A stretch of 64,000 nt of DNA, from assembly GCA_017450205.1 (NCBI GenBank), contig JAFSVF010000001.1:75189-139188 (forward strand), in the 5' to 3' direction. The notes beneath the pieces were generated by a model, which saw only the letters and a list, made by a program, of their open reading frames with translations, did not search any database and was not told the origin of the DNA. The translations under genes were made by a program, and so were the position numbers. This DNA comes from Bacilli bacterium (GTDB lineage: Bacteria > Bacillota_I > Bacilli_A > RF39 > UBA660). Within the stretch, counting starts at the first letter, position 1. Every line of letters begins with the position of its first letter. Shown piece after piece: positions 6,274-28,667 of the stretch.

Positions 6274-7197
6274 ATGAAATGTTTAAAATGTGGAACAGAA
6301 AATGCAGAAGGTTCCTTATTTTGTATTAAATGTGGAGCTAATCTAAAAGATACAGAAAATGTAACTCAAGAAGCACAAGCATCAATTGAAAATAATCAAA
6401 ATGAAAGTGTACAAGAAGCTGTAATACCAGTTCAAGTAGCACCTGTACAAGAAGCTGCACCTGTTCAAGCAGCAGCACCAGTTGCTCAACAACCAGTTGT
6501 TAATACACAACAAACACAAACTAGTGTTAATACTAGTCCATTAAATTATTTAATGTTTATTATTGCTATTATCTTAAAACCATTTAAAAGTTTTAAAGAT
6601 GAAGAATCTAAATTAACTAATCCAAAAACTTCTTTAATATTTACTTTAATTATTACTGGAGCAATGACTGTTATAAATCTTATTACAACAGTATTTAATG
6701 CAGTTCATGTTAAATCATTCTTAGGAGAAACATCTTGGGTTTGGGATAATTTAAAAAATATTAAATGGTTAGAAGTTATTGGAAAGAATTTCTTAATTTA
6801 TGTTGGAGTTATTTTTGCTATTACTGTAGTATTCTATCTTGGAGGTTTAGTTGCTAAGAAACAAGTTAACTTTATTAAAACTTTATCTATTACAACTACT
6901 TCTGTAATACCTGCTGTAATTTGTTCATTTATTTTAGCTCCAATTGGAGGATTAATTTGGAGTTATTTAAGTGTATTCTTTAGTATCACAGGAATAGTTT
7001 ATTCATTAACTATTTTTACTACTTTAATTAATGAAGAATTAAAATTAACTGAAGATATGAAAGTTTATTTCTTTACTGCTTGTTTTGCAATTTTATGTTG
7101 TGGTGCTTATTTTGCAGTTATGAAATTTATTGAAAGTTATTTAACTAGTTCATTAACTAGCAGTTTCGGTAGTTTATTTAGTAGTTATTTAGGATAG
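6274..7197 (+). CDS. Zinc-ribbon-anchored polytopic membrane protein
   Basis: N-terminal CxxC-x12-CxxC ribbon (MKCLKCGTENAEGSLFCIKCGANL), an APVQ-rich linker, then several TM helices. Confidence 0.6.
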   Translation: MKCLKCGTENAEGSLFCIKCGANLKDTENVTQEAQASIENNQNESVQEAVIPVQVAPVQEAAPVQAAAPVAQQPVVNTQQTQTSVNTSPLNYLMFIIAIILKPFKSFKDEESKLTNPKTSLIFTLIITGAMTVINLITTVFNAVHVKSFLGETSWVWDNLKNIKWLEVIGKNFLIYVGVIFAITVVFYLGGLVAKKQVNFIKTLSITTTSVIPAVICSFILAPIGGLIWSYLSVFFSITGIVYSLTIFTTLINEELKLTEDMKVYFFTACFAILCCGAYFAVMKFIESYLTSSLTSSFGSLFSSYLG

Positions 7198-7205
7198 ATA
7201 GTATT

Positions 7206-8969
7206 ATGGAAGAGAATAATTTAAATAATAATGTTAATAAAGATAATAATTTAAATACAGTTGATAATACTACAAATGATCAAAATAATGTAGTTAATAA
7301 TGACTTAAGTGCTTTTCAAAATCCAACTGTAGTTAATAATTTTAATATTAAAAATAATGATGAAGGAACTCCAGTTGAAGGTGCTCCGATAGAAATGCCA
7401 GCACCAGGAACTCCAGATGTTGTCCCAGCTGAGAATCTTTCACCTGTAGTTGAACCAGTTCAAACAAATTCTGTTCAAGAACTAGTTCAAGTGGCACCTG
7501 TTCAAGAAGAAGCACCAGTTGTTCAACAACCTGTTGTTAATGATCAAACTCAAAAAAAGAGTTTAGTAGATATAATTAGAAAGAATAAAATACCATTTAT
7601 TATTGTTGGTGCTATTGTATTAGTATTAATTCTAGTTTTGGTTGGTAAGAATTTTTTCGGTAAAAGTAATGAAGATAAAATGTTAGAAGCTTTATTTAAT
7701 GAAGATGCTCCAATTCAAATTAAACAAGATGGTAAATATGGTTTTATAGATACTGATGGTAAAATTATAATTCAACCAGAATTTTCATATGCGTCAGATT
7801 TTTATGGAAATTATGCCATTGTAGGTAATAGTGAAGATGCTTACAAGAAAGATGATGCTTTTAAAATTATAGATAAAAAAGGTAATGTAAAAATGACTTC
7901 ATCATCTGTTTCTCGTATTGAATATATTCCAGAATATAGTGTATGGGTTATAGATTCTCATTTATACAATAGTAATTTATCTTTAATTACCAATGAAGAT
8001 GTAAAAGTAGAATATGAAGATTATGGTTATCTTTCATGGATAAATGATAAAGCTAAATCTGCAGGTATTATGACTACTTTTGGTGAAGTTACATATACTT
8101 ATAAATTTAATAATGATGAAACTTACCTTAGTATTAAAGTATCAGATAACGATTTATCTTTAAAATCTCGTTATTGTATTATTAATGTTGAAAATGAAAA
8201 AAATGCGGTTGTAAATTGTGATTCAGGTAAAGTTGTTGTTGATTTTACTGATAAGTATATTACTGATGAAGATGATAATATTTTTGAAATTAATGATAAA
8301 GATACTTTTGATACTGAAAAGGTTATTTATATTCAAAATGATAAAATTGCTTTAGAAATGAATGGTGATGACATAGAGTTTAGATATAATTCTAATGGTT
8401 ATATTACTATTTATGACGAATCTAAAGATTATGGAGAAAAATATTCATATTATGATTTAGCAACTGGCAAGACAAGTACTGATGAGCCATCTGGTAGTTC
8501 TTCTAGTTATTCTTCATATATTTCTGAATTTGAAGAATTCTCTAAATTGAAAAAATTTAGTTGTGATGAAGGTTATGGAATTAAGAATGGAGAGGAAATT
8601 GTAGTTCCTTGTGGGTGGAATAGTATTGATTTCTTTGATGTTTATCTTTATAAATATTTAGTTTCTAAAGATAAAAATTATTTTATTGGTTATAAAGATG
8701 ATAAAACTTATATTTATGATATAAATAAGAAAAAAGTTGTAATAGAATTAAACACTAAATATGTTAGTTCTTATAGTAGTTCTGTTTTAATTAGTTATAA
8801 AGATAAAGAAACTAATAAGACTATTATTTTAAATTTACTTACTTTAAAATCTGAATCATTTGATTCAAGTCTTGATGTAGATGTAGAAACTAATTATTTT
8901 ACTGTTACTGAAAATGGTAAAAAGAATTATTACAATTTAAGTTTTAAAAAGATTTATACAGAAGGGTAA
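7206..8969 (+). CDS. Membrane-anchored WG-repeat (KWG-like) protein with an N/PVQ-rich N-terminal region
   Basis: The APVQEEAPVVQQPVVN linker is homologous to that of the 6274 protein. One TM helix. WG-type repeat DGKYGFIDTDGKIIIQPEFSYASDFYGNYAIV. Confidence 0.55.
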   Translation: MEENNLNNNVNKDNNLNTVDNTTNDQNNVVNNDLSAFQNPTVVNNFNIKNNDEGTPVEGAPIEMPAPGTPDVVPAENLSPVVEPVQTNSVQELVQVAPVQEEAPVVQQPVVNDQTQKKSLVDIIRKNKIPFIIVGAIVLVLILVLVGKNFFGKSNEDKMLEALFNEDAPIQIKQDGKYGFIDTDGKIIIQPEFSYASDFYGNYAIVGNSEDAYKKDDAFKIIDKKGNVKMTSSSVSRIEYIPEYSVWVIDSHLYNSNLSLITNEDVKVEYEDYGYLSWINDKAKSAGIMTTFGEVTYTYKFNNDETYLSIKVSDNDLSLKSRYCIINVENEKNAVVNCDSGKVVVDFTDKYITDEDDNIFEINDKDTFDTEKVIYIQNDKIALEMNGDDIEFRYNSNGYITIYDESKDYGEKYSYYDLATGKTSTDEPSGSSSSYSSYISEFEEFSKLKKFSCDEGYGIKNGEEIVVPCGWNSIDFFDVYLYKYLVSKDKNYFIGYKDDKTYIYDINKKKVVIELNTKYVSSYSSSVLISYKDKETNKTIILNLLTLKSESFDSSLDVDVETNYFTVTENGKKNYYNLSFKKIYTEG

Positions 8970-8972
8970 TTT

Positions 8973-8999
8973 AGACAACTATTTATAGTTGTCTTTTCT
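8973..8999 (+). terminator. Rho-independent terminator
   Basis: AGACAACTA / TAGTTGTCT stem followed by a T-rich tail. Confidence 0.6.
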
Positions 9000-9016
9000 C
9001 AAGAAAGGGGTATTTT

Positions 9017-11887
9017 ATGTTTTGTCCTAAATGTGGTACAAATTTACCAGAAAATTCTGATTTTTGTTCTCATTGTGGTGCTAATTTAAAAGAGTTTTTT
9101 TTACCAACTAATGAAGAAGAAACTCCAAGTAGTGAAGTAGCAACTCCAGTTGTTAATGAGAATAATACCAATTCTAATCAAGCTACAACTACTGAAATGT
9201 TATCAAAAAAGAGTAAAGAATTTTTTGAACCTAAGATAGAAAAAATAAAAGAATTTATAAAGAAGAATAAAAAACAATTAATAATTGGATTAAGTTGTTT
9301 TGTTGTAATATTACTTATAGCTATTGTTTATAATTCTTTATTTGGATTCGATAGGTTTAATTGGAATAAAGAATATAAAGATTTAAATTTAAATTACGTT
9401 ACTCAAAATAAAGTTCGATTAGCTATAAATTTTTCTGATGAAAATAAATTGGATAAAATTAAGTATAAAACTACATGTGGTAAACATGATGTTAGTGGAA
9501 AAGAAATTGAATGGGATTTAACGGATTCATTAGGCGAATGTGAAGTAGAAGTTACTTATAAGTTAAGAAAATTAAAAAAGAAATATATAGTTATTGATGA
9601 TTTTGTTAAAGAACATGATTTATATTTAGATCCTACTCAAATCGATTATGACTCTGATGAAGATTTAGACTATGATAAATTAACTAATAAACAAGAAAAA
9701 GAATTAAAGACTGATCCAATTCTTGCTGATACAGATATGGATGGTTTAGATGATGGTTACGAAGTTAATACTAGTAAAACAGATCCATTAAAGAAAGATT
9801 CAGATGATGATGGTTTATCTGATTATGATGAAATTGAATTAGGATCAGATCCATTAAAGAGTGATTCAAAAGGTGATGGAGTTAAAGATGGAGAAAGAAC
9901 TTTAACTTATTCAATTTCTAATGAAGATTTAGGTATAACTATTAATTTAACTGGTAAAGGTAATATTGCTAGTACTTCAATTAGTTCATTTAAGAATAAT
10001 ACATTTAAAGATATAGATGGACTTATGGATACTGTTTATAATTTTTATACAGATGGTACTGTTGAAAAAGCAGAAGTTGTTATTCCTTATACATTAGAAG
10101 AAATAACTAAAAAAGGTTTAGATGAAGACAATTTAGTTTTATATTACTTTAATGATGATACTAAAGAATTAGAAGCTATGCCTACAGTTGTAGATAAAGA
10201 GGCTAAAAAGATTACTGTTACTCTTAAACATTTTTCTAAATATGTTTTAGGAGATAAGAATGTAGTAATACAAAATAATAAAACTCAAATAATGATAGTT
10301 ATTGATAATTCAATATCAATGTATACTTATAAACAATTAGAAGATAAAGGTTACTCTGTTAGTGGAGCTGAAGGAAATGATAGTACATTTAAAAGATTAA
10401 CATTAACTAATAAGTTAATTGATATGTTTACTGGTAATTATCATTTTGGTATTGCTGAATTTGCAGGTTATTATGTTAATTTAAACAAGTTTACAGATAA
10501 TAAAGAAACATCAAAGAATTCAGTTGATTCTATTAAATATGATATTGATAATGTCGGTGATGGAACTAACATTGTAAATGCTCTTAATAAAGGTATTTCC
10601 GAATTCAGTAAAGATGAAGATAATCATTATTTAATACTTCTAACAGATGGTAAAGATACAAACAATTATACTACACTTGAAGATAGTAAAAAATCAATTA
10701 TTTCAAGTGCAAAAGAAAAAGACATTAAAGTATGTGTTATTGGTTTAGGTAGTAAAATTGATAGTGAAGATTTAGATGAAATTGCTGAAGGCACTGGATG
10801 TGATTATTATAATGCTAATGATGCAAATGCTTTAGAGGAAATTTATGCTCTTATTGCTGCAGATATTAATTATAATTTAGTTGATACTAATAAAGATGGA
10901 GTTGTTGATAGTACTGTAATAGCTGATAGTGGATTTATCGTTACTAGAGATGGTTTCTCATTTAATAATTATGCTTCAAGTTTATCAGGTGGTCATTGTT
11001 ATGGTATGGCATTGTTTGCTGAGCTTTATTATACAAAGAAACTTCCTATGAATTTTGGAGCAAGAAAAACTACTAGAGAGAATGAGAATTTAGATTTATA
11101 TTTAGAAATGAATTCTTATGCATATGATTTATATAGTACATATTTTTATAGTTATAGTAATTTATATGATTATAAATTAAAAACTAATTCTTTAAAGCAT
11201 TTATTTGGTTATGAGCACTTTGGTGAAGAGACTCCAAAAAATTTATATTCCATTAAAGATAAACTTTTAGTATACGATGAAGATATTAAAAATGAGGCTC
11301 TTAATTCTGGCTTATATGATTTAGTTACTGCTGAATCTCATTTAAGTAAAGAAAGACGTATTGAAAAACATGGGGCATATTATGAAAATTATGAAGATTT
11401 ATTGTTAAATGAAGACAAAATGCAAAGTAGTTCAGTTCTTGATAATAATGATAAACAACTATTAAATGCTCTTAGTTCATTCTTAATTAAACAACTTGCT
11501 ACAGATTTCTATTCTTCATCATTTAGTTTTGAAAATTGGGTTTTTGATAAACTTACAGATCAAAACTTTGATAGAATACATTCTGCTGCATTTATAGAAC
11601 TTTTAAAATCTAGAATTGAGAGTGGAGATGCACCAGTTATTGGTGGTGATTTTGATGGCGGAGATCATGCAGTTAATGCAATAAGTTTAGCTCAACATAT
11701 TGATAATCCTAATCATTATTCAATTGGTGTTTATGATAATAATTATCCTGGAGAAAAAAGATATGTTGATATAGTTTGTAATAAGCTAGTTTGTGTAACT
11801 AAAGAAGGTGCTTATTATAGTAATTCAAATAAAGCTATAAATATAAGTAAATCATTAGATGATGATTTAGCTTATTTTAAAAATTAA
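9017..11887 (+). CDS. Zinc-ribbon-anchored giant surface protein with TSP3-type Ca-binding repeats, a vWA domain and a C-terminal Cys/His peptidase-like domain
   Basis: Ribbon MFCPKCGTNLPENSDFCSHCGANL. One TM. DxDxDGLxDxxE repeats (DTDMDGLDDGYE, DSDDDGLSDYDE). vWA MIDAS IVIDNSISM with LLTDGKDT. C-terminal GGHCYGMA ... GGDHAVNA ... YDNNYPG. Confidence 0.65.
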   Translation: MFCPKCGTNLPENSDFCSHCGANLKEFFLPTNEEETPSSEVATPVVNENNTNSNQATTTEMLSKKSKEFFEPKIEKIKEFIKKNKKQLIIGLSCFVVILLIAIVYNSLFGFDRFNWNKEYKDLNLNYVTQNKVRLAINFSDENKLDKIKYKTTCGKHDVSGKEIEWDLTDSLGECEVEVTYKLRKLKKKYIVIDDFVKEHDLYLDPTQIDYDSDEDLDYDKLTNKQEKELKTDPILADTDMDGLDDGYEVNTSKTDPLKKDSDDDGLSDYDEIELGSDPLKSDSKGDGVKDGERTLTYSISNEDLGITINLTGKGNIASTSISSFKNNTFKDIDGLMDTVYNFYTDGTVEKAEVVIPYTLEEITKKGLDEDNLVLYYFNDDTKELEAMPTVVDKEAKKITVTLKHFSKYVLGDKNVVIQNNKTQIMIVIDNSISMYTYKQLEDKGYSVSGAEGNDSTFKRLTLTNKLIDMFTGNYHFGIAEFAGYYVNLNKFTDNKETSKNSVDSIKYDIDNVGDGTNIVNALNKGISEFSKDEDNHYLILLTDGKDTNNYTTLEDSKKSIISSAKEKDIKVCVIGLGSKIDSEDLDEIAEGTGCDYYNANDANALEEIYALIAADINYNLVDTNKDGVVDSTVIADSGFIVTRDGFSFNNYASSLSGGHCYGMALFAELYYTKKLPMNFGARKTTRENENLDLYLEMNSYAYDLYSTYFYSYSNLYDYKLKTNSLKHLFGYEHFGEETPKNLYSIKDKLLVYDEDIKNEALNSGLYDLVTAESHLSKERRIEKHGAYYENYEDLLLNEDKMQSSSVLDNNDKQLLNALSSFLIKQLATDFYSSSFSFENWVFDKLTDQNFDRIHSAAFIELLKSRIESGDAPVIGGDFDGGDHAVNAISLAQHIDNPNHYSIGVYDNNYPGEKRYVDIVCNKLVCVTKEGAYYSNSNKAINISKSLDDDLAYFKN

Positions 11888-11899
11888 GGAGATGATTAT

Positions 11900-13020
11900 A
11901 TAAAATGTCCAAATTGTGGATATGAAAATACTGAAGGAGTTAATACTTGTTCAGCTTGTGGTGGTAATTTAAATACTGCCACAAGTACTACTGAATCTAA
12001 TGATTCAAATTCTGTTAAAATGTCTGAAGTTATGAACGTGACTACAGATGATAATAAAGTTAATGTATCTTTTGATAAAGATAAAATGGAAGGACTTATT
12101 GAAGGAACTACTAAATTAGATGAAAATACTAATCTTGGTAAAGATATAATTGGAATGTTTGTTCCAAAAGATAAAGTTGATGAAGTATATAATAATGCTC
12201 AAGACGCATATAAAAAGAAACAACTTGAAAATCAAAGTCAACCAGTTACTCCTAAAAAAGAAAAGAAACATATGACTTTCAATAAAATTAGAGGCATAGT
12301 TCTAATAATAGTTTTAATATTAGCATTTATAGTTGCTTATTTACAATATAATGGGTGGTAGCTCTAATAGTAGTACTTCAAAAGTTACTACAACAACAAC
12401 TACAAAAAATGAAACAATTACAACAATCATAAATGAAGAATATGATAAAACTGGTGATTTCCTATTAGGAGTAGAAGATGTATTTACAATTAGTGGTAAA
12501 GGAACTGCGGCTTTAGGTAAAATCGAAAAGAAAATTAATGATATTAAGGATGATATTCAAATAATTGGCTTAAATCATGAGACAATAACAACTACTGTAG
12601 TTGGTATTCTTGAAAAAAAATCAAATTAATAAAGATGTAGCAGAAGCTGGTGAAACAGTTACTTTAATTCTAAAAGATATATCAACAGATGACGTTGAAA
12701 GAGGACAAATTTTAGCTAAACCAGGTTCAATTACTCAACACACAAAATTTAAATGTTCTGTATATGTATTAAAAACAGAAGAAGGTGGAAGACATACTCC
12801 ATTCTTCACAAATTTAAGACCACAATTCTATTTTAGAACTAGTGACGTTACTGGTGTTATTGAATTACCAGAAGGTGTAGAAATGGTTAATCCGGGTGAT
12901 AACGTTGAATTCGACGTTGAATTAACTACTTCTGTAGCACTTGAAAAAGGAACTAGATTCGATGTTCGCGAAGGTGGTAGAATAATTGGAAAAGGAATAG
13001 TTACAGACATTATTAGTTAA
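11900..13020 (+). pseudogene. Zinc ribbon-TM-Thr-rich linker-EF-Tu domain II/III fusion, disrupted (ATA start and two +1 frame breaks)
   Basis: The in-frame ribbon IKCPNCGYENTEGVNTCSACGGNL begins at ATA 11900, 8 nt after AAGGAG. The frame breaks at GGG 12353-12355 and at A8 12613-12620. The downstream frames encode the EF-Tu motifs [59 protein letters not shown] and [10 protein letters not shown]. Neither internal piece has an SD. Confidence 0.6.
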
Positions 13021-13021
13021 T

Positions 13022-13049
13022 TAAGAAAATAGAATTTCTATTTTCTTTT
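13022..13049 (+). repeat. 28-nt direct repeat, copy 2 (TAAGAAAATAGAATTTCTATTTTCTTTT)
   Basis: Matches 6200-6227 at 27 of 28 positions. Confidence 0.9.
13024..13049 (+). terminator. Rho-independent terminator after the EF-Tu-like gene
   Basis: Same stem as the serS terminator (AGAAAATAGA / TCTATTTTCT) followed by a T-run. Confidence 0.7.
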
Positions 13050-13094
13050 ATTCTTAGTTAATATATAATTAATAGTAGATTGGAGAATGATAAT

Positions 13095-14057
13095 ATGATA
13101 TGCCCAAATTGTGGAAAAGAAAATGTTGAAGGAGCAGGTTTTTGCGCGGGTTGTGGAAATAATTTAACAGTAGCGAATAATAATAATAATAATAATACAC
13201 TTGTTAATGATGAAACAAATAATGTTGTCTCTAATAGTATGTCAACTGATAATGTAGTTAATAATACTAATACGAATATAGATAATAAGAAAAATAATAA
13301 TAGTAAAGTAATAGTTATTATATGTATTTTATTAATATTAATTATTATTTTATTTTTAGTATTTGGATTAAATAAAGGTAAAAAATTAAATTCTAATGAA
13401 ACAACTGTAACTTCAACAACTACTGTTGTTGAAAATACAAAGTGTACTTCGTTTTCAACAGATTTCGAAGATGAACAAGTAATTAAAATATTAGATCTTG
13501 ATTATATATATCATGCTAATGCTAGTTATCCAGTTGCTCAACATACAGTTCTTAATAATTTTATAGATTATGAGAATGACATTATTGATAATAATCAATT
13601 TAAGGTTGAATTTGAACTTAATGGTAAAAAATATTATTTTTCATCTGATGTTGAAGGTAATAATGTAGATACTAATTTATTAAAGAATGAAAATGAAAAT
13701 TCTTATTATCCTAATGAAAATAATCCAAAAATTGATTTGATTAAAATTGAAGGAAAAGAAAGAATAAATATTAGTCATCTTGTTAGTGATGGTGATTTTA
13801 AATTTGGCAATCTTGTTTTAAGAAAAGATGAAAAAGGCATTTATAGATTTACAAATGATAAATATAATCTAGATCAAGCAAGTTCGGAAGCTCATTTCTT
13901 TGATAAAACTGGATGTAGATATGCGAAAGTGTCTTTTGTATGGAACACAGATGATAAAAGAAGTTTTAAAAAGTTACGTTTTAGTACATTTGTTGATGGA
14001 AGTGATAATTTATATTCTTCTGATACTGCTTTTCAATCAGTTGCTTATTCATATTAG
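13095..14057 (+). CDS. Zinc-ribbon-anchored single-pass membrane protein with an unknown ectodomain
   Basis: ATG at 13095 after the TTGGAGA SD. Ribbon MICPNCGKENVEGAGFCAGCGNNL, an Asn-rich spacer, one TM, then a Thr-rich linker (ETTVTSTTTVV). Confidence 0.6.
   Translation: MICPNCGKENVEGAGFCAGCGNNLTVANNNNNNNTLVNDETNNVVSNSMSTDNVVNNTNTNIDNKKNNNSKVIVIICILLILIIILFLVFGLNKGKKLNSNETTVTSTTTVVENTKCTSFSTDFEDEQVIKILDLDYIYHANASYPVAQHTVLNNFIDYENDIIDNNQFKVEFELNGKKYYFSSDVEGNNVDTNLLKNENENSYYPNENNPKIDLIKIEGKERINISHLVSDGDFKFGNLVLRKDEKGIYRFTNDKYNLDQASSEAHFFDKTGCRYAKVSFVWNTDDKRSFKKLRFSTFVDGSDNLYSSDTAFQSVAYSY
13176..13196 (+). repeat. (AAT)7 trinucleotide microsatellite inside a CDS (poly-Asn)
   Basis: Seven perfect in-frame AAT units. 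Confidence 0.9.
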
Positions 14058-16421: not shown

Positions 16422-16545
16422 GATATTATAATAGACCAAAAGGCTTAGAATTCTATGGACTATCTTTGTTCTCAATGCTTAGTCATGATATAGTAATTGC
16501 AATAGTAGTTTTTCCAAACGTAAAATATTAATTAAATAATTTGAT

Positions 16546-16578
16546 AAAAAACCAGAGAAATCTGGTTTTTTCTTTTTT
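16546..16578 (+). terminator. Rho-independent terminator about 125 nt downstream of ftsK
   Basis: AAAAACCAGA / TCTGGTTTTT stem with a GAAA loop and a T-run. Confidence 0.7.
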
Positions 16579-16617
16579 AATTTATACATTATGATATAAT
16601 TAAAATAGGGAGTGCAT

Positions 16618-19041
16618 ATGAAAAAGATAGAAATTATTTTAATATTTTTTTTATTTGTAATAGTATCAATAGGAATGTTTTTAAAAAAATCATATGCTTC
16701 AAATGATACAATTACATCTACTACATATGAGATTAAAGATTCAACTATTTATGCAAAACCAACATCTAACGACTTATCAGTTGGTGAATTACTTGAAAAT
16801 CTAACTTTTTCTGAAGTAATAGATATTTATGATAGTAATAATAAAACTGTTGATGAAGATAAAAAGGTTGGTACTGATTTTAAAGTAAAAGTATCAAATA
16901 AAACTTATAAAGTAGTTGTTTTAGGAGATGTAACTGGAGAAGGAGTTATTAATTTAGGAGATGTTTCTAGAGTATATAATCACTACAAGAAAAAGACATC
17001 TTTAAACGGATCTTTTTTAACAGCAGGTAAAGTTACTGGTAATACTAGTATTTCATTTGGAGATGTTTCTAAATTATATAATTTCTATAAAGGTAAAAGT
17101 CCGTTTAGTTATTTTAGTAAAGATTATCCTGATGGTATTACTAATACAGTAAATAAAACTGTTAATACTATTAGTGATTTAAGAGCATATAATGCAAGTG
17201 TAGGTAAAGTAGTTAAAACAAAAGGATATTCATCAGCAAATGATGGTGGTGAAGCTAAGTATCAAATTGTAAAGAAAAGCAATCAAGTAATTGATAATGG
17301 TTTATATATTTTACTTGATAATGGAAATGTTGCTCAATTAATTATTGGAAGACAAACTGTTAATGTTAAACAATTTGGTGCTAAAGGTGATGGAACAACA
17401 AATGATTCAATAGCATTTAATAATGCAATAAATTCAGGCGCTGTAACTATAAAGATTCCTGATGGTACTTATAATATGAATAATACATTATTTACTTTAA
17501 CTAAATTTATGAGATTTGTTGGTAATGGTGAAACTAAGACAACAGTTAAGAATGGAACAATTAAAGCACCATATGGAGTAAGTGCTGAAGATATTACTTT
17601 TGATGGTGGATATACTCAAAACGTAGAATTCACAGGTGTTGGTCATGAAAAAAACGGGTCGGTAATTTTTGATGTAACTCCAACTGGTATTAGAGATGTT
17701 AGTTACAAAAATTGTACATTCAAAAATGTAACAGTAGCTTCTTATGCGAGACATGGAAGTGATATTGAAACTGATAAAACAAGATTAAGAAATGATACAG
17801 CAAAGGATTGTACTTTTACTAATCTTAGAAGAGTTGGTATATATCATACTGTACCTTTAAGTAATGGTACTTATCTAAATAATAGTTTTACTAATCTTGG
17901 TGGCTCAGATATGTTAAGAGGTATTATAAGTGGAATATTCCTTGGTGATGTAACAAATAATACATATTTCCAAGCTGATAATATACTTATCAAAGGAAAT
18001 ACATTTGATAATTTAGTTACAAAAGATAATTTTTTACCATCAAATGAACAAGAACATTGGACAAATTCTAATTTTATTGCAATCAGAGGATATAATGCAT
18101 TAATTGATAATAATACATTTACTAACTTAGTAGGTTATGGAAATGACCGTGAAGGTGTATATACGAAGATTCAAAACTTAACTATATCTAATAATACATT
18201 AATTAACGCTGGATTTGGCGAAGGTTATATATGTGCTAAAGCTCATGATGGTGAAGCAGTATTCAATGTAATTAATAATAATATTAGTGGTAGAGCAGGA
18301 ACTGGAATTAGAACATATGGTCCTGGAGATATAACTGGAAATACTATTAATATAGAAAATACTCCAGTAGCTATTCTTGCAACTACAAGTGGTACAGTTG
18401 GAGTAGGAAATACTCCACTAAACGTTAGTGGAAATACTATTACTTCAGGAACTGAGGTAGGAATAAATGTTAATGGGACTGATGTAAGTGATTATAGTGA
18501 TGATAATAAAATGGTATCACTTGTTAATGTACAAACACCTATAATATTAAATAATAATACTATTAGACCAACTACAAGTTTTAAAACTTATATTTCTATT
18601 ATAAATCCATATGATGATGTTACTATTGATAGTAATAAAATCTATCTTAGTAGTAATGAAGGAAATGATAAAGCGATTACTATAACAAATTCTAATGATG
18701 TTTATGATACATGTTTAAATAATACTACAACTATATCTGGTAATTATTTTGAATCATCAGGTAACACTAATGTGTTTGCTAGAGTCTCTTATTATCAAAG
18801 TAGTGGAAAAACAACAGGAAGAAAAATATATTTAAAAAATAATAATTTTAATTATACAGGTAGTCATGAATCATTTTATCCATTTAAATATGTAACTGGT
18901 TCTGCAAATAATGATAAATTATTTATTGAAGGTAATACTACTAATACTCCAAAGTCTAACACTTGGTTGTCAATTGATCCTAAAGAATATAGTATTGATA
19001 ATCCAGATTTTGCCCGAATATCCTATAGTTATAATTATTAG
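16618..19041 (+). CDS. Secreted right-handed beta-helix (pectate-lyase-3-like) protein with a dockerin-like EF-hand pair
   Basis: Signal or anchor peptide. GDVTGEGVINLGDVSRVYNHY followed by the degenerate second segment KVTGNTSISFGDVSKLYNFY. VNVKQFGAKGDGTTNDSIAFNNAI is typical of Pectate_lyase_3/tailspike-like beta-helices. Many NxxxGN-type helix rungs. Confidence 0.6.
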   Translation: MKKIEIILIFFLFVIVSIGMFLKKSYASNDTITSTTYEIKDSTIYAKPTSNDLSVGELLENLTFSEVIDIYDSNNKTVDEDKKVGTDFKVKVSNKTYKVVVLGDVTGEGVINLGDVSRVYNHYKKKTSLNGSFLTAGKVTGNTSISFGDVSKLYNFYKGKSPFSYFSKDYPDGITNTVNKTVNTISDLRAYNASVGKVVKTKGYSSANDGGEAKYQIVKKSNQVIDNGLYILLDNGNVAQLIIGRQTVNVKQFGAKGDGTTNDSIAFNNAINSGAVTIKIPDGTYNMNNTLFTLTKFMRFVGNGETKTTVKNGTIKAPYGVSAEDITFDGGYTQNVEFTGVGHEKNGSVIFDVTPTGIRDVSYKNCTFKNVTVASYARHGSDIETDKTRLRNDTAKDCTFTNLRRVGIYHTVPLSNGTYLNNSFTNLGGSDMLRGIISGIFLGDVTNNTYFQADNILIKGNTFDNLVTKDNFLPSNEQEHWTNSNFIAIRGYNALIDNNTFTNLVGYGNDREGVYTKIQNLTISNNTLINAGFGEGYICAKAHDGEAVFNVINNNISGRAGTGIRTYGPGDITGNTINIENTPVAILATTSGTVGVGNTPLNVSGNTITSGTEVGINVNGTDVSDYSDDNKMVSLVNVQTPIILNNNTIRPTTSFKTYISIINPYDDVTIDSNKIYLSSNEGNDKAITITNSNDVYDTCLNNTTTISGNYFESSGNTNVFARVSYYQSSGKTTGRKIYLKNNNFNYTGSHESFYPFKYVTGSANNDKLFIEGNTTNTPKSNTWLSIDPKEYSIDNPDFARISYSYNY

Positions 19042-19140
19042 AAGATATGATTTATTATGATAATAAAACTTTTTCTTGAAATATTTAAATTTTAAATGTA
19101 AAATATATGAACAAAGATTGTTTATATAGGGTTGGGTCAT

Positions 19141-20881: not shown

Positions 20882-21075
20882 AATTTACTTAATGGTGCCT
20901 TGATTGATTATGTACACAACCAACATTAATTCGTATAATATAGAACCATCTAAATATATTATATCATATAAAAATAATAAAATATATTTTATTTTTCATA
21001 TTGTAAAATTAATTTAATGATTTATATAATAATTCTTATTTTAAATTATTTTATAATTTAAAATAGGTGATCAGG

Positions 21076-21288
21076 ATGAAAGAAACAATTACAAAATTTA
21101 TTATATTCTTTGGTTTATTCTTTTTATTAGTTAATGCTATTGGTTATATTTTCAATATAAACTCTTTTGTTACTGTATTAAAGAATCCAAATGGTTATGG
21201 GGGTTTTTCTAAAAGTAATATTCCAACCATTTTAAGTTTTTTATTAACAACATTTGTTATTATGATAAGAAAGTTCAAGAATAAATGA
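21076..21288 (+). CDS. Small two-TM membrane protein
   Basis: ATG at 21076 after the AGGTGA SD. The product is about 70 aa with two hydrophobic helices. Confidence 0.4.
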   Translation: MKETITKFIIFFGLFFLLVNAIGYIFNINSFVTVLKNPNGYGGFSKSNIPTILSFLLTTFVIMIRKFKNK

Positions 21289-21658
21289 GGTTATTTATGA
21301 TTATTTTAAGAAATGTGGAGAAAAAAATAATAATTTAGAAATATTAAAAATGTTAATTTGTGTTTACCGTCACATGGATTGGTTTTAATTAGGTGAATCA
21401 ATGGTTCGGTTAAAATTACTTTATTAAATATAATTAGTGCTTTAGATAAAGCAACTTCTGGTAATTTTTCATTTTCATTTCCTCCTTTGATAAAACAAAG
21501 AAACATTAAAATATATTATAGTCACACTTATTGTAGTTTTTACAATAAAACTGGAATTTCAAAATATAATTCACGTTTTTTACAAAATATAAATAATTAA
21601 TATTTTTTATGAATTATTTTTATGATATAATTCTTTTTAAGAAAAGGTGTGTGTAAAT

Positions 21659-22108
21659 ATGAAAATTTTTAAATATTGTTTTTTATTTTTTATCTTGTGT
21701 TTGATTTTAACAATAGAATCAGCAATAGCTGCAAGATATAGTTCAACTGGTATTGTAGGAATTTTTTATGAAATAAAAGCTAGAAAAACAGTTGATACTG
21801 GTGAAGAGTGGACTAAGAAACAAGGTAGTGTTCAATCATATAATTTCCAAAAAGCATGGACAACTTTGACTGATCCATGTAATAATTGTCATTTTAAAGT
21901 TAATCTTTATATGGGCAATGTGTTGTATGGATATACTGATGGTTATATTGGTGATAATATTTATTTAGATAATAAACTATTAAATCAATCTGCTCAATTA
22001 GGTAATTATAAAATAAAAATTAATAGAATTGATAATACTTTATTAACTACTTGGCATGTTGGTGATTGGTATATTGATAAGACGAATCCAAATGCTGTAT
22101 ATAAGTAA
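21659..22108 (+). CDS. Small secreted protein (Sec signal peptide, about 125-aa mature form)
   Basis: ATG at 21659. The signal peptide ends ESAIA/ARY. The mature part is Trp/Tyr/Gly-rich with a single CNNC pair. First gene of the AT-rich ABC cluster. Confidence 0.55.
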   Translation: MKIFKYCFLFFILCLILTIESAIAARYSSTGIVGIFYEIKARKTVDTGEEWTKKQGSVQSYNFQKAWTTLTDPCNNCHFKVNLYMGNVLYGYTDGYIGDNIYLDNKLLNQSAQLGNYKIKINRIDNTLLTTWHVGDWYIDKTNPNAVYK

Positions 22109-22117
22109 GAGGCGTGT

Positions 22118-22987
22118 ATGTTTTTTAAAAAAAATATACTTAATGTTTTATTCTTGATTTGTATTTTAGCTATTTTTTTAAATAATTTTATTATAGCAAA
22201 TCGTGATTATAAATTAATACTATTAAATAATAATAAAAAAAATGAATATTGTCTTCGTTTGAATGGTGAATATAACAATGAAGATGAAGAGAATATGTGT
22301 GAATTTTATTTATCCGACGATTATAATATTAGTTTTTTAGATGTATTTTTAAATTTGTCGTTCAACGGATTTCAATTACATTTTTTGATTATAATAATGA
22401 TTATTATTTTGTGTATTTGTTATTATAATAATTCAATTATTAAAAATGGTGTTTATTCATTTTTTTTGAGTAGAATATCATATTATAAATTTTTGAAAAA
22501 ATTAATTTTTAGAAGTTATTTACCTTGTTTTATATATGTCTTTGTTTTAACTTTTTTTTATATTTTGTATTTTGTTAGATTTGGCTCGTTTAGTGATTTA
22601 AGTAAATTAATTGGTAATTATTCAATCTTATTATTTGTTATAACTAGTATTATTGTAACTCTATTAAATTTTATGGGTTATGCTAATATATGTTTAATTG
22701 TAATGAGAAAGAAAATGAATTATTTCTTAACTTGTATAATTTCTTTTGTTATTATTATGCTAAGTGATTTATTTTTTGAGGTGATTTTTGATACTTTTTT
22801 AAATATTGCTTTTAAATTTGACAGTTCGTATATGTTTGGAAACATATTAGCAAGAGATTATATAAATGAAAGTATTCCATTTGTTAGAAATATTTTTATT
22901 CCTATTATTTTTTTTGTTATATCATTTATTATAATGATAAAAGAGTATAGTTCAAAAGAAAAAATGTTTATTGATTTAAATGATTGA
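22118..22987 (+). CDS. Polytopic membrane protein, ABC-2-type permease-like
   Basis: N-terminal TM, an extracytoplasmic loop, then about 5 TM helices. Immediately precedes the ABC ATPase. Confidence 0.5.
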   Translation: MFFKKNILNVLFLICILAIFLNNFIIANRDYKLILLNNNKKNEYCLRLNGEYNNEDEENMCEFYLSDDYNISFLDVFLNLSFNGFQLHFLIIIMIIILCICYYNNSIIKNGVYSFFLSRISYYKFLKKLIFRSYLPCFIYVFVLTFFYILYFVRFGSFSDLSKLIGNYSILLFVITSIIVTLLNFMGYANICLIVMRKKMNYFLTCIISFVIIMLSDLFFEVIFDTFLNIAFKFDSSYMFGNILARDYINESIPFVRNIFIPIIFFVISFIIMIKEYSSKEKMFIDLND

Positions 22988-22997
22988 TGGTGATTTT

Positions 22998-23639
22998 ATG
23001 AAAATTAATGTTAATAATATTTATAAAAAATTTGGAGATAACGTCGTTTTGGATAATGTTAATGTGTCATTTGAATCTGGTAAAATATATGGATTGGTTG
23101 GTAGAAATGGGTCGGGTAAGTCGGTCTTTTTGAAAATTTTATGTGGATTTTATAAACCAAATAGTGGAAATGTTTTATTTGATAATTATGATTATATAGA
23201 TAATAATAAGTACCCAACTATGTTAAGAGCATTGGTTGAAAAACCACAGTTTTTCCCTGAACTTAGTGGTTTTACTAATTTAAAAATTTTAGCTGAAATT
23301 CAAAAAAAAATTGGGGAGGACCAAATTAATTATGCTTTAGATATTGTTAATTTAAAAGAAGAAAAAAACAAGAAAGTTTATAAATATTCCTTAGGTATGA
23401 AACAAAAATTAGGAATTGCTCAAGCAATTATGGAAAATCCTGATATTATTGTACTTGACGAACCTTTTAACGGAATTGAAAGAGATAGTGTAAATAAAAT
23501 AAAAAATTACTTATTAAAGTTAAAAAAAGAAGATAAACTAATAATTATTAGTACACATATTAAAGAAGACATTATAGATTTAGCAGATTCTATTTATGAA
23601 TTTGATTCTGGGAAAATTAATGAAGTTAAAATTGTTTAA
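22998..23639 (+). CDS. ABC transporter ATP-binding protein
   Basis: Walker A GRNGSGKS, signature YSLGMKQKL, Walker B IIVLDEP, H-loop STH. Confidence 0.85.
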   Translation: MKINVNNIYKKFGDNVVLDNVNVSFESGKIYGLVGRNGSGKSVFLKILCGFYKPNSGNVLFDNYDYIDNNKYPTMLRALVEKPQFFPELSGFTNLKILAEIQKKIGEDQINYALDIVNLKEEKNKKVYKYSLGMKQKLGIAQAIMENPDIIVLDEPFNGIERDSVNKIKNYLLKLKKEDKLIIISTHIKEDIIDLADSIYEFDSGKINEVKIV

Positions 23640-24339
23640 ATATCCCTTAATTAATTATAGTTTACTTCTTATAAAAAAATTTTTTTCAAGAGATAAATGT
23701 GTAGTTATATTTTTATTATTGTTTTTTTTGGAACTAATGAAATGTTTTTTGTATAGACCATTGTTCAATTTTTGGTATAACATTCATTTTTCACTTTCGT
23801 GTGGCTTTTTAACTATTATTTATTTTTTTATAGTTATTATATCTATATTACGTTTTTTAAAAATACTTTCTATTAATGAAATATATAATAGGGTTGGAAC
23901 AATGAAAGAAATTATTTATATAATTTTATTTTCTTCGTTTTTTTTGTGCACTGTTATATTTGTTTCTTACTTTATTCTTAATATCAGTTTTTCATTATTG
24001 TTTTCTTTTAATAATTTTGATTTTAATTCTTTACCATTTAATTTGAATGGAATTATATATATTTTTTTTGAAACTATTAGATATTATATATATTCTATAT
24101 TATTTTCGCTATTATTTACTATTATTTTCTTTTTTGTTGAAAATAGGGTGTTTTATTTTATAATTGTTTTATTAATTGAATTTTTTATTACATATTATTT
24201 TTGGAATGAAATTAATTTTGTTTCATTATTAATTGAAAGGCAGTTTTCAAGTTTTATGTTAGAATTAGTTTATTCTTTGATTTGTATGTTTTTGATGATT
24301 TTAAATTTAAAAATTGTTCTTGAGATTATAAAAAAGTGA
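23620..24339 (+). CDS. Polytopic membrane protein (putative permease subunit)
   Basis: Multiple TM helices with extreme F/I/L/Y content. The start is uncertain (23596 or 23620) and overlaps the ATPase stop. Confidence 0.45.
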   Translation: MKLKLFKYPLINYSLLLIKKFFSRDKCVVIFLLLFFLELMKCFLYRPLFNFWYNIHFSLSCGFLTIIYFFIVIISILRFLKILSINEIYNRVGTMKEIIYIILFSSFFLCTVIFVSYFILNISFSLLFSFNNFDFNSLPFNLNGIIYIFFETIRYYIYSILFSLLFTIIFFFVENRVFYFIIVLLIEFFITYYFWNEINFVSLLIERQFSSFMLELVYSLICMFLMILNLKIVLEIIKK

Positions 24340-24351
24340 AAGAAGGTAAAT

Positions 24352-24984
24352 ATGTTTTTGTGGTTTTTGACTATTATTCAAAGTTATAAAAAAAATTTTT
24401 TCCTTTGGATCTTTTTTTACTTTATTCTTGTTTTGGATTTTTTTAGATTCAAATCTATTTATATTAGTAATGAATATAATTTTATGAAATTAATGAGTTT
24501 ATTTACAATTGATTATAGCAATATTCAATCTTCTTTTCTTTGTTTATTGTTTTTTTTAATTAATATAATTTTTTTTATTTTTCTTTTTGATTATATAAAA
24601 GAAAAATGTTTTGAAAATATTATTTTACGATTTGATTCATGTATGTATTTTATATATTCAATAATAGTTTTTGAATTAGTTATTTTATTAAATTATACTT
24701 TTTGTTTTATGTTTTTGTGTTATTTATATGGATTTTATGTAATTATAATTATTAGAGTTTTAATTTTAATTTTAAATACCAGTTTAATTATGTTAGTATT
24801 ATATTCTCTATTTATTATTAATTATAAAAGTATTATATATTATATTATTCCGTTTATTATTGTTATTTTAATTTTTTTTAATAATATGATTTTAAAACTT
24901 ATCGGGTTTATAATCATATTAATTTTTGATTTATTTTTATACAAAAAATTTTTGAATAATAAATTGAAAGTTGATAACGACTAA
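24352..24984 (+). CDS. Polytopic membrane protein (putative permease subunit)
   Basis: Multiple TM helices. SD GAAGG upstream. Confidence 0.45.
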   Translation: MFLWFLTIIQSYKKNFFLWIFFYFILVLDFFRFKSIYISNEYNFMKLMSLFTIDYSNIQSSFLCLLFFLINIIFFIFLFDYIKEKCFENIILRFDSCMYFIYSIIVFELVILLNYTFCFMFLCYLYGFYVIIIIRVLILILNTSLIMLVLYSLFIINYKSIIYYIIPFIIVILIFFNNMILKLIGFIIILIFDLFLYKKFLNNKLKVDND

Positions 24985-25005
24985 GAGATATAGTCGTTTT
25001 CTTTT
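24976..25005. terminator. Hairpin at the convergent junction of the ABC operon and the mob gene
   Basis: AACGACTA / TAGTCGTT stem with a T-rich 3' flank. It overlaps both stop codons. Confidence 0.5.
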
Positions 25006-26414
25006 GCTCTAGACATTTCTTTAACTCTTTCTTGTTTATAGTATTCTGCTTCATCTTCCATCTCTTGATTAATCTTATGAAGTGCTTGATTAATTTGTGA
25101 TTTTGATATACCAAATATAGGTTTTAATATTACTCTGTGTTCAGCTTCAGAAATAAGTCCGTTTTCTTTAAACTTCTTACTTACTTGTTTATATGTATTA
25201 GCTGTATAATAATCTTTATGATTAGCACCTTTAACTAATTGTTCAACTAAATCCATATGTTGCTTATCAATAACACTTTTTAAAAAATCTTGAGCATTTA
25301 AATCACTTTTATGTTGTTTCTCAAACTTTTGGTTTGATTTTATCAATTTATCATTTTCTTTTTGAAGATCATAATTTCTTTTTATTAAATATTTTGCTTT
25401 ATCTTTTATTCTTAATAAATCAGGATAGATATATCTTAATTCTTCAAATTCTTTTGCCATTTCTTTTGCTTCGTTTGTTAACTCAAGAAATTTATTAAAT
25501 TGTTTTTCAGTAAATGTATAATTACCAAATTTATCTTTTTCTACATTTAAAAGTATATCTACATATTCATCATCATATTTACCAATATTTTTTGAAATAT
25601 TAGATATTCTTTCCATACTTTCTTTTTTTGCTTCAGTTTGTTTAACTAATTCTACATAGTTTTCCATATCTTTTAAATGGATATTAAATGTTCTACCTTT
25701 TTGCTTATCTTTAAGTTCCATTTTATTATCTTCATCAAGTTCATATATTTCATTATATTCATTTATACATTTTTCTCTCATGTAGTCTTGTATCTTTTCT
25801 AATTTATCTTTAGTAAAGACTGAAGACTTACTAACTTGAACTGATAAACCTCTAGAACAATTATATTTAATTGGTACACCAACAATATGCATATGAGGTG
25901 ATCCTTCATCTAAATGAACTACAGCAGAGCATATTTTAAAGTCCGGAACTTTAGTTTCTAAATCTTTTAATTGCAGATTAAATACTTTAACCATCTTTTG
26001 TTTATGTTCTAATGTTTGTTGGTTCCAAAATTCTAGATTTCCAAGTTCAATAATAATTTCACAAGCCAAATCTTTTTGTTCATTATCTGATACATGCTTA
26101 AAATAATCATCTATCATTCTACTAGGTCTTGATTGTTTAGAGTTGTATTCTAATCTAGATTTTTCAAACATATCTAAATAGAGTTCTTTTACATCTTCAA
26201 CAACATCTCCAGATCCACGAAGTCCATAAATATATTCTGTATCTCCATTATACTTTCTAAAATCATGATTATTAACCTTTGATAATTGTCTTGCATTTTG
26301 AATTGCATTATTTGCATATGAGGTTGTTCCACTTAAATTATTTTTACTTTTTGCTTTTGCTTTTTTAGACTTGTTTCCATCATTACCAAGATGAAACGAA
26401 TAAGCTAATTCCAA
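24981..26414 (-). CDS. mob: MobV-family (Mob/Pre) relaxase
   Basis: Motif III HxDExxPHxH is present as VVHLDEGSPHMHIVGVP, and an HxxR-like NNHDFRKY lies upstream. Long coiled-coil C-terminus. TTG start 8 nt after AAGGAGG. Confidence 0.8.
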   Translation of the reverse strand: MELAYSFHLGNDGNKSKKAKAKSKNNLSGTTSYANNAIQNARQLSKVNNHDFRKYNGDTEYIYGLRGSGDVVEDVKELYLDMFEKSRLEYNSKQSRPSRMIDDYFKHVSDNEQKDLACEIIIELGNLEFWNQQTLEHKQKMVKVFNLQLKDLETKVPDFKICSAVVHLDEGSPHMHIVGVPIKYNCSRGLSVQVSKSSVFTKDKLEKIQDYMREKCINEYNEIYELDEDNKMELKDKQKGRTFNIHLKDMENYVELVKQTEAKKESMERISNISKNIGKYDDEYVDILLNVEKDKFGNYTFTEKQFNKFLELTNEAKEMAKEFEELRYIYPDLLRIKDKAKYLIKRNYDLQKENDKLIKSNQKFEKQHKSDLNAQDFLKSVIDKQHMDLVEQLVKGANHKDYYTANTYKQVSKKFKENGLISEAEHRVILKPIFGISKSQINQALHKINQEMEDEAEYYKQERVKEMSRAKENDYIS

Positions 26415-26438
26415 AAAATATTCCTCCTTAAATATGGA

Positions 26439-26511
26439 TTGAAAGCTTCCACTTCGAAGCTGTCAAACTATTTAACCCTCTAAGAAGATTGTACGCAAGC
26501 ATACATTCTTC
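26439..26511 (-). promoter_or_regulatory. Candidate oriT and mob promoter region (two imperfect palindromes)
   Basis: IR-A at 26484-26511 is a 13-bp-arm palindrome centred on GCTTGC (minus strand). IR-B at 26439-26466 (TTGACAGCTTC..GAAGCTTTCAA on the minus strand) contains a TTGACA -35 box. Confidence 0.4.
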
Positions 26512-26516
26512 ACGGG

Positions 26517-26780
26517 CTAAGGATTCTCCTTAGAAACCTTTTTCTTAGCATCATCTTTTAACAACTCTAACTTAATTGGCTTAACTGGAACTTCATCTAA
26601 ACTTAAATATGGATTAAATTCATCTACATCAGCTGGGATATATTTAAATAACTTATCAATATTTTTTTTATCTTTGTAGATTTCAATCTTATCTGGTTCA
26701 ATATAAATAATACCCATTTTAGCTTCTTCAACTATTTCTTTATCTCCATAATCCTCTAGCGGGAAAACTCTAACTACCAT
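26517..26780 (-). CDS. Hypothetical small acidic protein
   Basis: An ORF between the recombinase and mob genes. No obvious SD and no motif. Confidence 0.35.
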   Translation of the reverse strand: MVVRVFPLEDYGDKEIVEEAKMGIIYIEPDKIEIYKDKKNIDKLFKYIPADVDEFNPYLSLDEVPVKPIKLELLKDDAKKKVSKENP

Positions 26781-26842
26781 TAGATTTTTTGTTATGTTAT
26801 CAATATGTAATACTTTATCTCTTATATAGAATGTTGATTCTC

Positions 26843-28468
<1,626 letters not shown>

Positions 28469-28487
28469 TTATCTCAACTCCTTTTAC

Positions 28488-28539
28488 AAAAAAAGAGGAG
28501 ACAGTAGTGCATATAAGTCTATGTACTACTGACTCCTCT
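28488..28539 (-). terminator. Strong rho-independent terminator immediately upstream of the recombinase SD
   Basis: On the minus strand, AGAGGAGTCAGTAGTACATA / TATGCACTACTGTCTCCTCT pairs at 18 of 20 positions, followed by T7. Confidence 0.7.
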
Positions 28540-28663: not shown

Positions 28664-28667
28664 TAGT

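Follow-up and report, generated by a model that had tools for sequence, protein, structure and literature searches.

A recently decayed allele of a membrane-anchored protein with EF-Tu domains 2 and 3 and its relatives in uncultured gut Bacilli

Background

How do domains 2 and 3 of elongation factor Tu (EF-Tu) come to stand behind a membrane anchor, and why is the gene that encodes them broken? Both questions are raised by positions 11900-13020 on the forward strand of a stretch of 64,000 nt (contig JAFSVF010000001.1, assembly GCA_017450205.1, Bacilli bacterium), which is called the window throughout. A preliminary description of this locus, made from the letters alone, had read across two frame breaks to a protein consisting of a zinc ribbon, a transmembrane (TM) helix, a Thr-rich linker and EF-Tu domains 2 and 3 (D2 and D3), without the GTPase (G) domain. 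The analysis presented here shows that the locus is a recently pseudogenised allele and that its lesions have become fixed in a strain which was sampled six or more times. The anchored D2-D3 paralogs to which it belongs are a large, unnamed and undescribed family. This family and its place in a conserved surface-protein cluster had not been foreseen in the preliminary description, nor had the recombinant nature of the window allele or the conversion of its D3 by the EF-Tu gene, tuf.

Reconstruction of the gene product

Three successive frames on the (+) strand, A (11900-12361), B (12333-12629) and C (12601-13020), span the locus. They join to one protein of 372 aa when one G is removed from the GGG at 12353-12355 and one A from the A8 run at 12613-12620. 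The frames, this reconstruction and every motif quoted in the preliminary description are present in the sequence, and the proposed order of parts, including the TM helix IVLIIVLILAFIVAYL, agrees with the Pfam matches and the structural match. GTP_EFTU_D3 (PF03143) was found with E=1.2e-32 (112.8 bits, cut-off 27) and Zn_Ribbon_1 (PF13240) with 27.0 bits at a cut-off of 25, the CxxC...CxxC pattern being present. The match to GTP_EFTU_D2 (PF03144) is weak in the window copy (22.2 bits, under the cut-off of 30.3) and clear in the intact relatives L050 and P0002. GTP_EFTU (PF00009) was not found in the reconstructed protein by Pfam, and no G1 motif was found in the window-type protein, which hence does not possess the G1-G4 set of the EF-Tu GTPase.

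Domains 2 and 3 are co-linear with EF-Tu according to both Pfam and Foldseek, with the D2/D3 junction in register. The AlphaFold model of the intact relative P0001 has a predicted local distance difference test score (pLDDT) of 95-98 over residues 190-379. It fits EF-Tu D2+D3 with a root-mean-square deviation of ~1 A over ~190 residues (Foldseek E=2e-25), and its TM-score against the isolated D2-D3 fragment in 5i4q is 0.94. Judged by this model, the likeness of the window protein to EF-Tu lies far beyond chance. The region between zinc ribbon and membrane, which finishes in the K/R-rich stretch KKEKKHMTFNKIR, was also considered as a relic of the G domain: MAFFT put the segment VDISVDK...VGKDIIGMFVPKDKVDEVY on G3-G4 of EF-Tu, but the hhalign probability against an EF-Tu profile was 0.2 and the candidate was rejected.

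A family of anchored D2-D3 paralogs

A homology search with the repaired protein yielded three unbroken proteins of the same architecture, P0001 (379 aa), P0002 (376 aa) and P0003, the last one cut by a contig end. The contigs L001-L003 are syntenic with the window and show a big VWA protein, the EF-Tu-like gene, a zinc-ribbon protein and ftsK. Intact orthologues at the same locus between serS and ftsK are present in L001, L002 and L003, which are from the same species, and in L050 from a sister species.

The preliminary description had suggested a database search for D2/D3 proteins which lack the GTPase domain and carry a zinc ribbon or a TM helix, and this search led to a large family. A profile of the intact proteins gave 6565 matches at E<=1e-3 among 1.84 billion representatives. 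Among the top 150, at least 48 proteins of 250-365 aa are without a G1 motif, have a strong TM helix or a lipobox and carry complete D2+D3, in some cases in tandem. They begin in one of three ways: with a zinc ribbon, with a lipoprotein signal or with a tail rich in Q and N that bears a DPxTGQP motif. A further search, now with the family profile, brought ~65 more clusters at 90% identity, for which the only name given is 'hypothetical protein [Bacilli bacterium]'. There are thus more than 100 predicted anchored D2-D3 proteins without a GTPase domain, mostly from metagenome-assembled genomes (MAGs) of uncultured gut Bacilli or "Tenericutes". A hand-made, family-specific DNA motif hit 21 loci in GTDB species genomes, 16 of which encode such proteins. 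Most of these loci are from MAGs labelled uncultured Bacilli, Bacillales or Tenericutes and four are labelled otherwise (Lachnospiraceae, Clostridia, Agathobacter, Actinomycetes); human (Hadza), rabbit, goat and pig gut are among the source names. The scenario of a dead, one-off tuf fragment, raised in the preliminary description, is contradicted by these numerous intact homologues.

Neither NCBIfam r20 nor Pfam holds a model for this family. On the NCBIfam EF-Tu models, P0001 reaches 255-263 bits against cut-offs of 449-522, which is about half, and so it is not recognised as a whole EF-Tu by TIGR00485 or NF000766. When the N-terminal half was used as query, only zinc-ribbon noise and the closest alleles were returned; the cytoplasmic part is lineage-specific and therefore the family cannot be found in this way. 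Searches of full-text literature brought up no prior description of exported EF-Tu-domain paralogs.

Several residues are common to the family and unlike all EF-Tus, namely the YDxxGxFL start, VQIIGL, LKD, KPNSIKA, NPGD, AMEVGTEF and the GxGxVTK end. This pattern suggests that the anchored D2-D3 family arose once, by a duplication of tuf. The window protein shows the signature in D2, in NPGD and at the C-terminal end, whereas the remainder of its D3 is tuf-like because of gene conversion (see below). It shares the family architecture as well, with an N-in anchor or lipobox, a low-complexity stalk and complete D2+D3 at the C-terminus.

In some lineages the D2-D3 gene is preceded by a partner gene, the product of which has the same tail and TM helix and an EF-Tu G domain fused directly to D3, so that D2 is skipped (L063:6749-7984; L162; L164, 411 aa; L166, 326 aa). 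The G-domain motifs GHVDHGKS, DMPGH and SKCD are present in the partners. Lineages with both the G+D3 and the D2+D3 protein would display all three EF-Tu domains. The GTPase domain of the partners thus apparently lies outside the membrane.

Three further observations concern the relatives. The motif (I)IGYD(P/S)(M/Q)TGQP(I/V) stands instead of the zinc ribbon in the Q/N-rich tails of many family members and of the G+D3 partners; examples are P0136, P0171 and L063:7992-8930. P0249 and P0127 are lipoprotein-type D2-D3 proteins with a high-GC-style sequence and canonical lipoboxes (AIAGC, LLSAC), and the exported architecture may have arisen independently outside the low-GC Bacilli in these cases. 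P0004 (486 aa) and P0005 (522 aa) are full-length EF-Tus with an internal tandem duplication of the D2/D3 part or of the G-D2 junction, for which misassembly of tufA/tufB-like repeats is a likelier origin than a real gene.

Lesions and loss of the gene

Three lesions had been named in the preliminary description, an ATA start and two single-base insertions, and all of them are borne out by the alignment with intact homologues and by five identical contigs. None of the start codons ATG, GTG and TTG occurs in frame A, which opens with ATA-AAA-TGT, once the upstream stop is passed; the sole ATG close by (11892) belongs to another frame and reaches a TAA. At the extra G the window reads AATGGGTGGT, where the otherwise near-identical intact L002 has AAT-GGT-GGT, and frame A stops thereafter at a TAG (12359-12361). 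At the extra A it reads GAAAAAAAAT versus GAAAATAAT in L001, which is in frame there, and frame B stops at a TAA (12627-12629). An intact frame as in the rest of the family is hence absent from the window copy. Two more changes leave the frame untouched, a scramble in D2 and a Tyr-to-Leu exchange in D3 (Table 1). The scramble deletes the near-invariant Arg and the invariant Gly (R160/G161) of the xRG turn of the family. Together with the three lesions, the lost Arg-Gly and Tyr point to a pseudogene that evolves under relaxed constraint and belongs to one circulating strain.

The 109-aa fragment that is open in the window (P0121) recurs on five more contigs from separate assemblies (L052-L056; two Logan runs and three ENA samples), each with 100% identity to the window along 521-1164 nt. 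ATA and GGG are present in all five, and A8 in all four that reach this site, L056 stopping short. Thus, the tract lengths in the assembled sequences are uniform, with G3 in all six and A8 in the five that cover this site (the window and L052-L055), and the variation in tract length that characterises phase-variable contingency genes was not seen among them. Neither was a conserved frameshift site of the prfB/dnaX type found in the homologues, all of which are single open reading frames. Elsewhere in the 64-kb window, long intact open reading frames lie close together, and the general assembly quality is therefore not the cause of the lesions. Sequencing error is excluded by the five identical contigs and by the nature of the first lesion, a G-to-A substitution and not a homopolymer change. 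From the four explanations that the preliminary description had left side by side, recent decay fits best; phase variation and slippage find no support, the tracts being uniform and the homologues in frame.

Might the gene still be functional, by initiation at ATA combined with two +1 recoding events, or by on/off phase variation at the homopolymer tracts? The ribosome-binding site is intact, +1 slippage of tRNA-Gly (GGG to GGU) and of tRNA-Lys in A8 would each restore the wild-type peptide, and an in-frame stop lies shortly 3' of each slip site. However, expression would depend on three inefficient steps, each independent of the others, G3 lacks the length of a contingency tract, the tracts are equally long in all six sequences, recoding is required by no homologue, and the invariant Arg-Gly and the conserved Tyr are gone, as relaxed constraint would give. 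We regard a functional gene as very unlikely. Still harder to believe is an artefact, be it homopolymer sequencing errors or an assembly chimera of a surface-protein gene with tuf, a possibility that the preliminary description had mentioned as well. It would fit that two lesions are single-base homopolymer insertions and that D3 is 89-90% identical to tuf in DNA, but D3 also differs from tuf at 10-11% of bases, the D2/D3 junction keeps the EF-Tu register, the change from ATG to ATA is a substitution, and the separately assembled Logan and ENA contigs agree with the window in every position. A chimera is moreover refuted by L001, which holds the same D3 in intact form with a matching downstream flank. 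Recent decay of a real gene is thus the reading that we keep.

A mosaic allele with gene conversion from tuf

The housekeeping backbone of the window and of L001 is 96-99% identical, and therefore both belong to the same species. In the VWA gene and the 5' half of the EF-Tu-like gene the identity is only 55-80%. In a sliding window it leaps to ~95% at ~12450, within the Thr linker. The comparison with L002 shows the reverse, 97% identity up to 12465 and no possible alignment beyond, and the blastn break between the two allele types lies at ~12405-12465. These reversed patterns lead to the conclusion that the window allele is a recombinant, with an L002-like 5' half and an L001-like 3' half joined in the Thr linker.

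Two very different D2-D3 types exist within this one species. P0002 follows the family consensus, and alleles 2 and 3 at the locus retain a family-type D3. The type of the window and P0001 combines a family-like D2 with a D3 which shows 82-83% identity to EF-Tu from a single subclade of Bacilli and has the private residues of that subclade. An alignment to tuf had been proposed in the preliminary description for dating the duplication; done with the tuf gene L058 from the same cohort and Nei-Gojobori estimates of synonymous (dS) and nonsynonymous (dN) divergence, it revealed an old divergence of D2 and a conversion of D3. For D3, dS is 0.18 in the window and 0.14 in L001, dN is 0.09, and 92% of the codons are identical among identical residues. 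For D2 of L001 the values are 1.70, 0.54 and 39%, and the codon identity of the window D2 is 45%. The boundary is sharp at DVERGQ, and the last ~12 codons are divergent again. Approximately 96 codons of tuf appear to have been copied into D3, which then evolved at a dN/dS of ~0.6. That D3 is better conserved than D2, as had been noticed in the preliminary description, holds true (dS 0.14 versus 1.70), but the reason is the conversion by tuf and not a stronger constraint.

Membrane topology and possible function

The 15 residues before the TM helix have a mean net charge of +2.76 versus +0.11 after it. When net charge and extended helix boundaries are used, the N flank is the more positive one in 80 of 90 family members and the less positive one in 0 of 90; a count of K and R only in a fixed window of 19 aa gives an equivocal signal. 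In several family members a canonical lipobox precedes the module and marks them as lipoproteins, and neighbours in the same gene island bear VWA/TSP3 and WG-repeat ectodomains on the same anchor. Zinc ribbons with four Cys are typically cytoplasmic, which counts against a reverse topology. Charge rule, lipoprotein variants and zinc ribbon hence place D2-D3 outside the membrane: the helix is predicted to be a signal anchor, and the protein a type-II protein (N-in, C-out) with an extracytoplasmic D2-D3 module, as the preliminary description had predicted from the neighbours.

In the picture that follows for the intact protein, a zinc ribbon lies on the cytoplasmic side, a single TM helix crosses the membrane, and a Ser/Thr-rich stalk carries a copy of EF-Tu domains 2 and 3 on the outside. 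The duplication would have freed the D2-D3 module from the constraints of translation, and a ligand-binding, adhesin-like surface module is its most likely role. Anchor and stalk, the VWA, TSP3 and WG-repeat neighbours, the strong allelic diversity and the dispensability of the island fit with such a module. The aminoacyl-tRNA 3'-end pocket and the EMFRK motif are lost in the alleles at the window locus and GGRHT is kept only in part in the family, thus a translation-like role of the window-locus proteins appears unlikely.

Two other roles have to be weighed against the adhesin-like module. With reverse topology (N-out, C-in), the anchor would hold the EF-Tu domains at the cytoplasmic face of the membrane, where they might for instance localise tRNA or translation components. 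The partner proteins largely keep G1 and G3 (GHVDHGKS, DMPGH), which is sensible where GTP is available, and many members retain GGRHT. Nevertheless, only a slim chance is left for this arrangement, given that the charge rule favours N-in in 80 of 90 proteins and the opposite in none, that canonical lipoboxes precede the module in several members and VWA/TSP3 ectodomains follow the same anchor in the island, and that the residues of the tRNA 3'-end pocket are unconserved in the window-locus alleles. The protein may also be a decoy rather than an adhesin, mimicking the EF-Tu of the cell and trapping whatever binds it, for instance toxins of other bacteria, proteins of phages or antibodies of the host, before the real target is reached or recognised. 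The display of all three EF-Tu domains by two adjacent anchored proteins in some lineages would suit this idea, as would the conversion that returns D3 to the host sequence, the hypervariable alleles within one species, and the solved complexes of EF-Tu with toxins, CdiA-CT with D2-D3 alone (5i4q, 7vmc) and Tse6 (4zv4). On the other hand, the surface residues of most family members diverge from EF-Tu, and conversion may arise neutrally where sequences are similar. The known EF-Tu-dependent toxins, moreover, act in the cytoplasm. The NAG of AGDNAGVLL, which we take to be the aminoacyl-tRNA and thiopeptide pocket of D2, is replaced in the window, P0001, P0002 and the L050 protein, although the wider family consensus AGDnVGLlL largely keeps the pocket. 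Decoy or mimicry is the weaker alternative to the adhesin-like module, and rather unlikely. We grant similarly little to its widest form, a dedicated Sec-exported 'surface EF-Tu' that is split over D2-D3 and G-D3 proteins, re-synchronised by tuf conversion and employed in an arms race as decoy or lure for EF-Tu-recognising factors of host, phage or competitors; were it true, strains of gut Bacilli would gain, swap and lose surface EF-Tu alleles, and the window strain would have lost its copy. A decoy specifically for EF-Tu-targeting thiopeptides was rejected as unlikely for the window-locus gene, NAG being replaced in all its alleles, while AGDNVG is largely kept in the wider family.

The whole explanation, a pseudogenised and mosaic allele of an anchored D2-D3 protein with a tuf-converted D3 and a role as surface module, is one that we hold with good confidence. 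Some points weigh against it. All six broken copies come from one or two cohorts and possibly from a single clone, and the tract lengths are known from assemblies and not from reads, so that minority lengths may exist. In principle, +1 slips (GGG to GGU, and within A8) could bypass both breaks and restore the wild-type peptide. The tuf gene L058 shares the cohort with the window but may be from another genome. Finally, we infer the adhesin role from the architecture, the neighbours and the literature on moonlighting of EF-Tu (PMC6822514).

Comparison with known systems

EF-Tu itself (TIGR00485; GTP_EFTU, GTP_EFTU_D2 and GTP_EFTU_D3) has homologous, co-linear domains 2 and 3. The window protein differs from it by zinc ribbon, TM helix and stalk in place of the G domain, and the alleles at the window locus by replaced EMFRK and NAG pocket motifs. 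A protein of the window type would be unable to act in translation.

Reports of EF-Tu at the cell surface exist for dozens of bacteria and are still debated, since the protein has no export signal and must keep its function in translation (PMC6822514). In Lactobacillus, Mycoplasma, Staphylococcus and others it was reported to bind mucin, fibronectin, plasminogen and further ligands (PMC6822514; PMC5593925), in each case as the full-length cytosolic protein, for which the release route is disputed (PMC6822514). The family described here likewise exposes EF-Tu surfaces on host-associated low-GC Gram-positive or Mollicute-like bacteria, and surface EF-Tu as mucin or fibronectin adhesin in related low-GC bacteria would be its closest precedent. 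In contrast to this moonlighting protein, where adhesin and cytosolic EF-Tu are the same polypeptide, the window protein comes from a separate gene with a TM anchor and has no G domain. The same is true for the family, with a predicted classical signal anchor or lipobox and with D2-D3 only (G+D3 being in the partner), and it can diverge freely. Another route, which puts EF-Tu domains outside by design, would thus consist of duplication, removal of the GTPase domain and joining to a classical membrane anchor or lipobox. EF-Tu parts at the cell surface can, on this evidence, be genetically hard-wired; the family offers concrete constructs for testing extracellular binding by EF-Tu surfaces and would illustrate escape from adaptive conflict in textbook style. 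The copy in the window is in itself an ordinary dead gene and matters only as an entry to this family.

The anchor design is identical to that of zinc-ribbon/TM-anchored surface proteins of Firmicutes (PF13240, a TM helix and a variable ectodomain), some of which share one cluster with the window gene. Their ectodomains are VWA, TSP3 or WG repeats, whereas that of the window protein comes from a core translation factor.

Concerted evolution of tufA and tufB by gene conversion is known in enterobacteria. There as here, sequence moves between tuf-derived paralogs of one genome. The recipient of the window type differs in that it is truncated, membrane-anchored and of different function, and in that D3 alone is converted. 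A housekeeping tuf can apparently donate sequence to a hypervariable surface-protein gene in this way.

The serS-ftsK island and other features of the window

The features of the locus are compiled in Table 1. The whole island is missing in L049 (L049:9462-9554), the closest GTDB species representative found, in which FtsK is 94% identical. In L050 it is shorter, without the WG-repeat gene and the last zinc-ribbon gene. The gene order of the island recurs at the distant family members L062-L065, which shows the cluster to be conserved; a location of the family gene in this cluster is not universal, as the gene in L066 sits after secA. The island appears to be under diversifying selection and dispensable, which would account for the loss of the gene in one strain.

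Table 1. Features of the EF-Tu-like locus and of the surrounding island (window coordinates)
Feature	Position	Strand	Evidence or remark
Variable surface-protein island, 7.8 kb, between serS and ftsK	6274..14057	+	Pfam
Zinc-ribbon (ZnR)-Yip1 gene	6274-7197	+	island gene, Pfam
WG-repeat protein gene	7206-8969	+	island gene, Pfam
ZnR-TSP3-VWA protein gene	9017-11887	+	island gene, Pfam
Ribosome-binding site AAGGAG, intact	11886..11891	+	8 nt 5' of mutated start; same in intact L002
Lesion 1, start codon ATA, intact alleles ATG	11900..11902	+	ATG in L001, L002, L003; ATA in L052-L056
N-terminal zinc ribbon, predicted cytoplasmic	11903..11962	+	Pfam PF13240; pLDDT ~91 in P0001 model
Cytoplasmic region, ~110 aa, conserved helix segment DIIGMFVPxDKVDEVY	11963..12292	+	alignment
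Single TM helix GIVLIIVLILAFIVAYL	12293..12343	+	hydropathy and charge rule; helix 127-150 in P0001 model
Ser/Thr-rich low-complexity linker with recombination joint	12344..12440	+	blastn break, sliding-window identity
Lesion 2, one extra G (GGG vs GG), frame break	12353..12355	+	L002, L003 AAT/AGT-GGT-GGT
EF-Tu domain 2 homologue, paralog signature YDxxG, VQIIGL, LKD; old divergence from tuf	12441..12690	+	
In-frame scramble EKKINDIKDD vs intact ERGIVKINDE	12525..12554	+	9-nt loss and 9-nt tandem gain
Lesion 3, A8 run with one extra base, second frame break	12613..12620	+	L052-L055 all A8
EF-Tu domain 3 homologue	12691..13017	+	Pfam PF03143, structure match
Putative gene-conversion tract from host tuf, ~96 codons, DVERGQ to REGG	12691..12978	+	dS, codon identity vs L058
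Tyr-to-Leu in TNYRPQ	12814..12816	+	Tyr >=90% conserved in family, invariant in EF-Tu
ZnR-TM protein gene	13080-14057	+	island gene 3' of EF-Tu-like pseudogene

In the ZnR-TSP3-VWA protein, the C-terminal ~350 aa past VWA hold the conserved elements GGHCYGMA ... GGDHAVNAIS ... YDNNYPGEKRYVD. This region has no Pfam match and seems to resemble a Cys/His peptidase-type catalytic pair. Just downstream of ftsK, 16433-19055 encodes a secreted protein of 809 aa with a pectate-lyase-like beta-helix (PF12708); in L001 of the same species an unrelated 388-aa gene is found in its place, which makes this a second variable surface locus.

Farther downstream, an insertion of ~8 kb (20898-29035) is missing in L001, L049 and L050 and adjoins the genes for tRNA-Leu and tRNA-Met (29049-29215). 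It carries genes for a large serine recombinase (26843-28468), a Mob_Pre relaxase (24981-26414) and an ABC ATPase (22980-23639) and is probably an integrated mobilisable element. The interval 29367-31593 holds the gene for a SpaA-type pilin (539 aa) and, after it, one for a sortase. Despite a GC content of 26%, the organism is therefore no wall-less Mollicute but has a cell wall bearing pili that are assembled by sortase.

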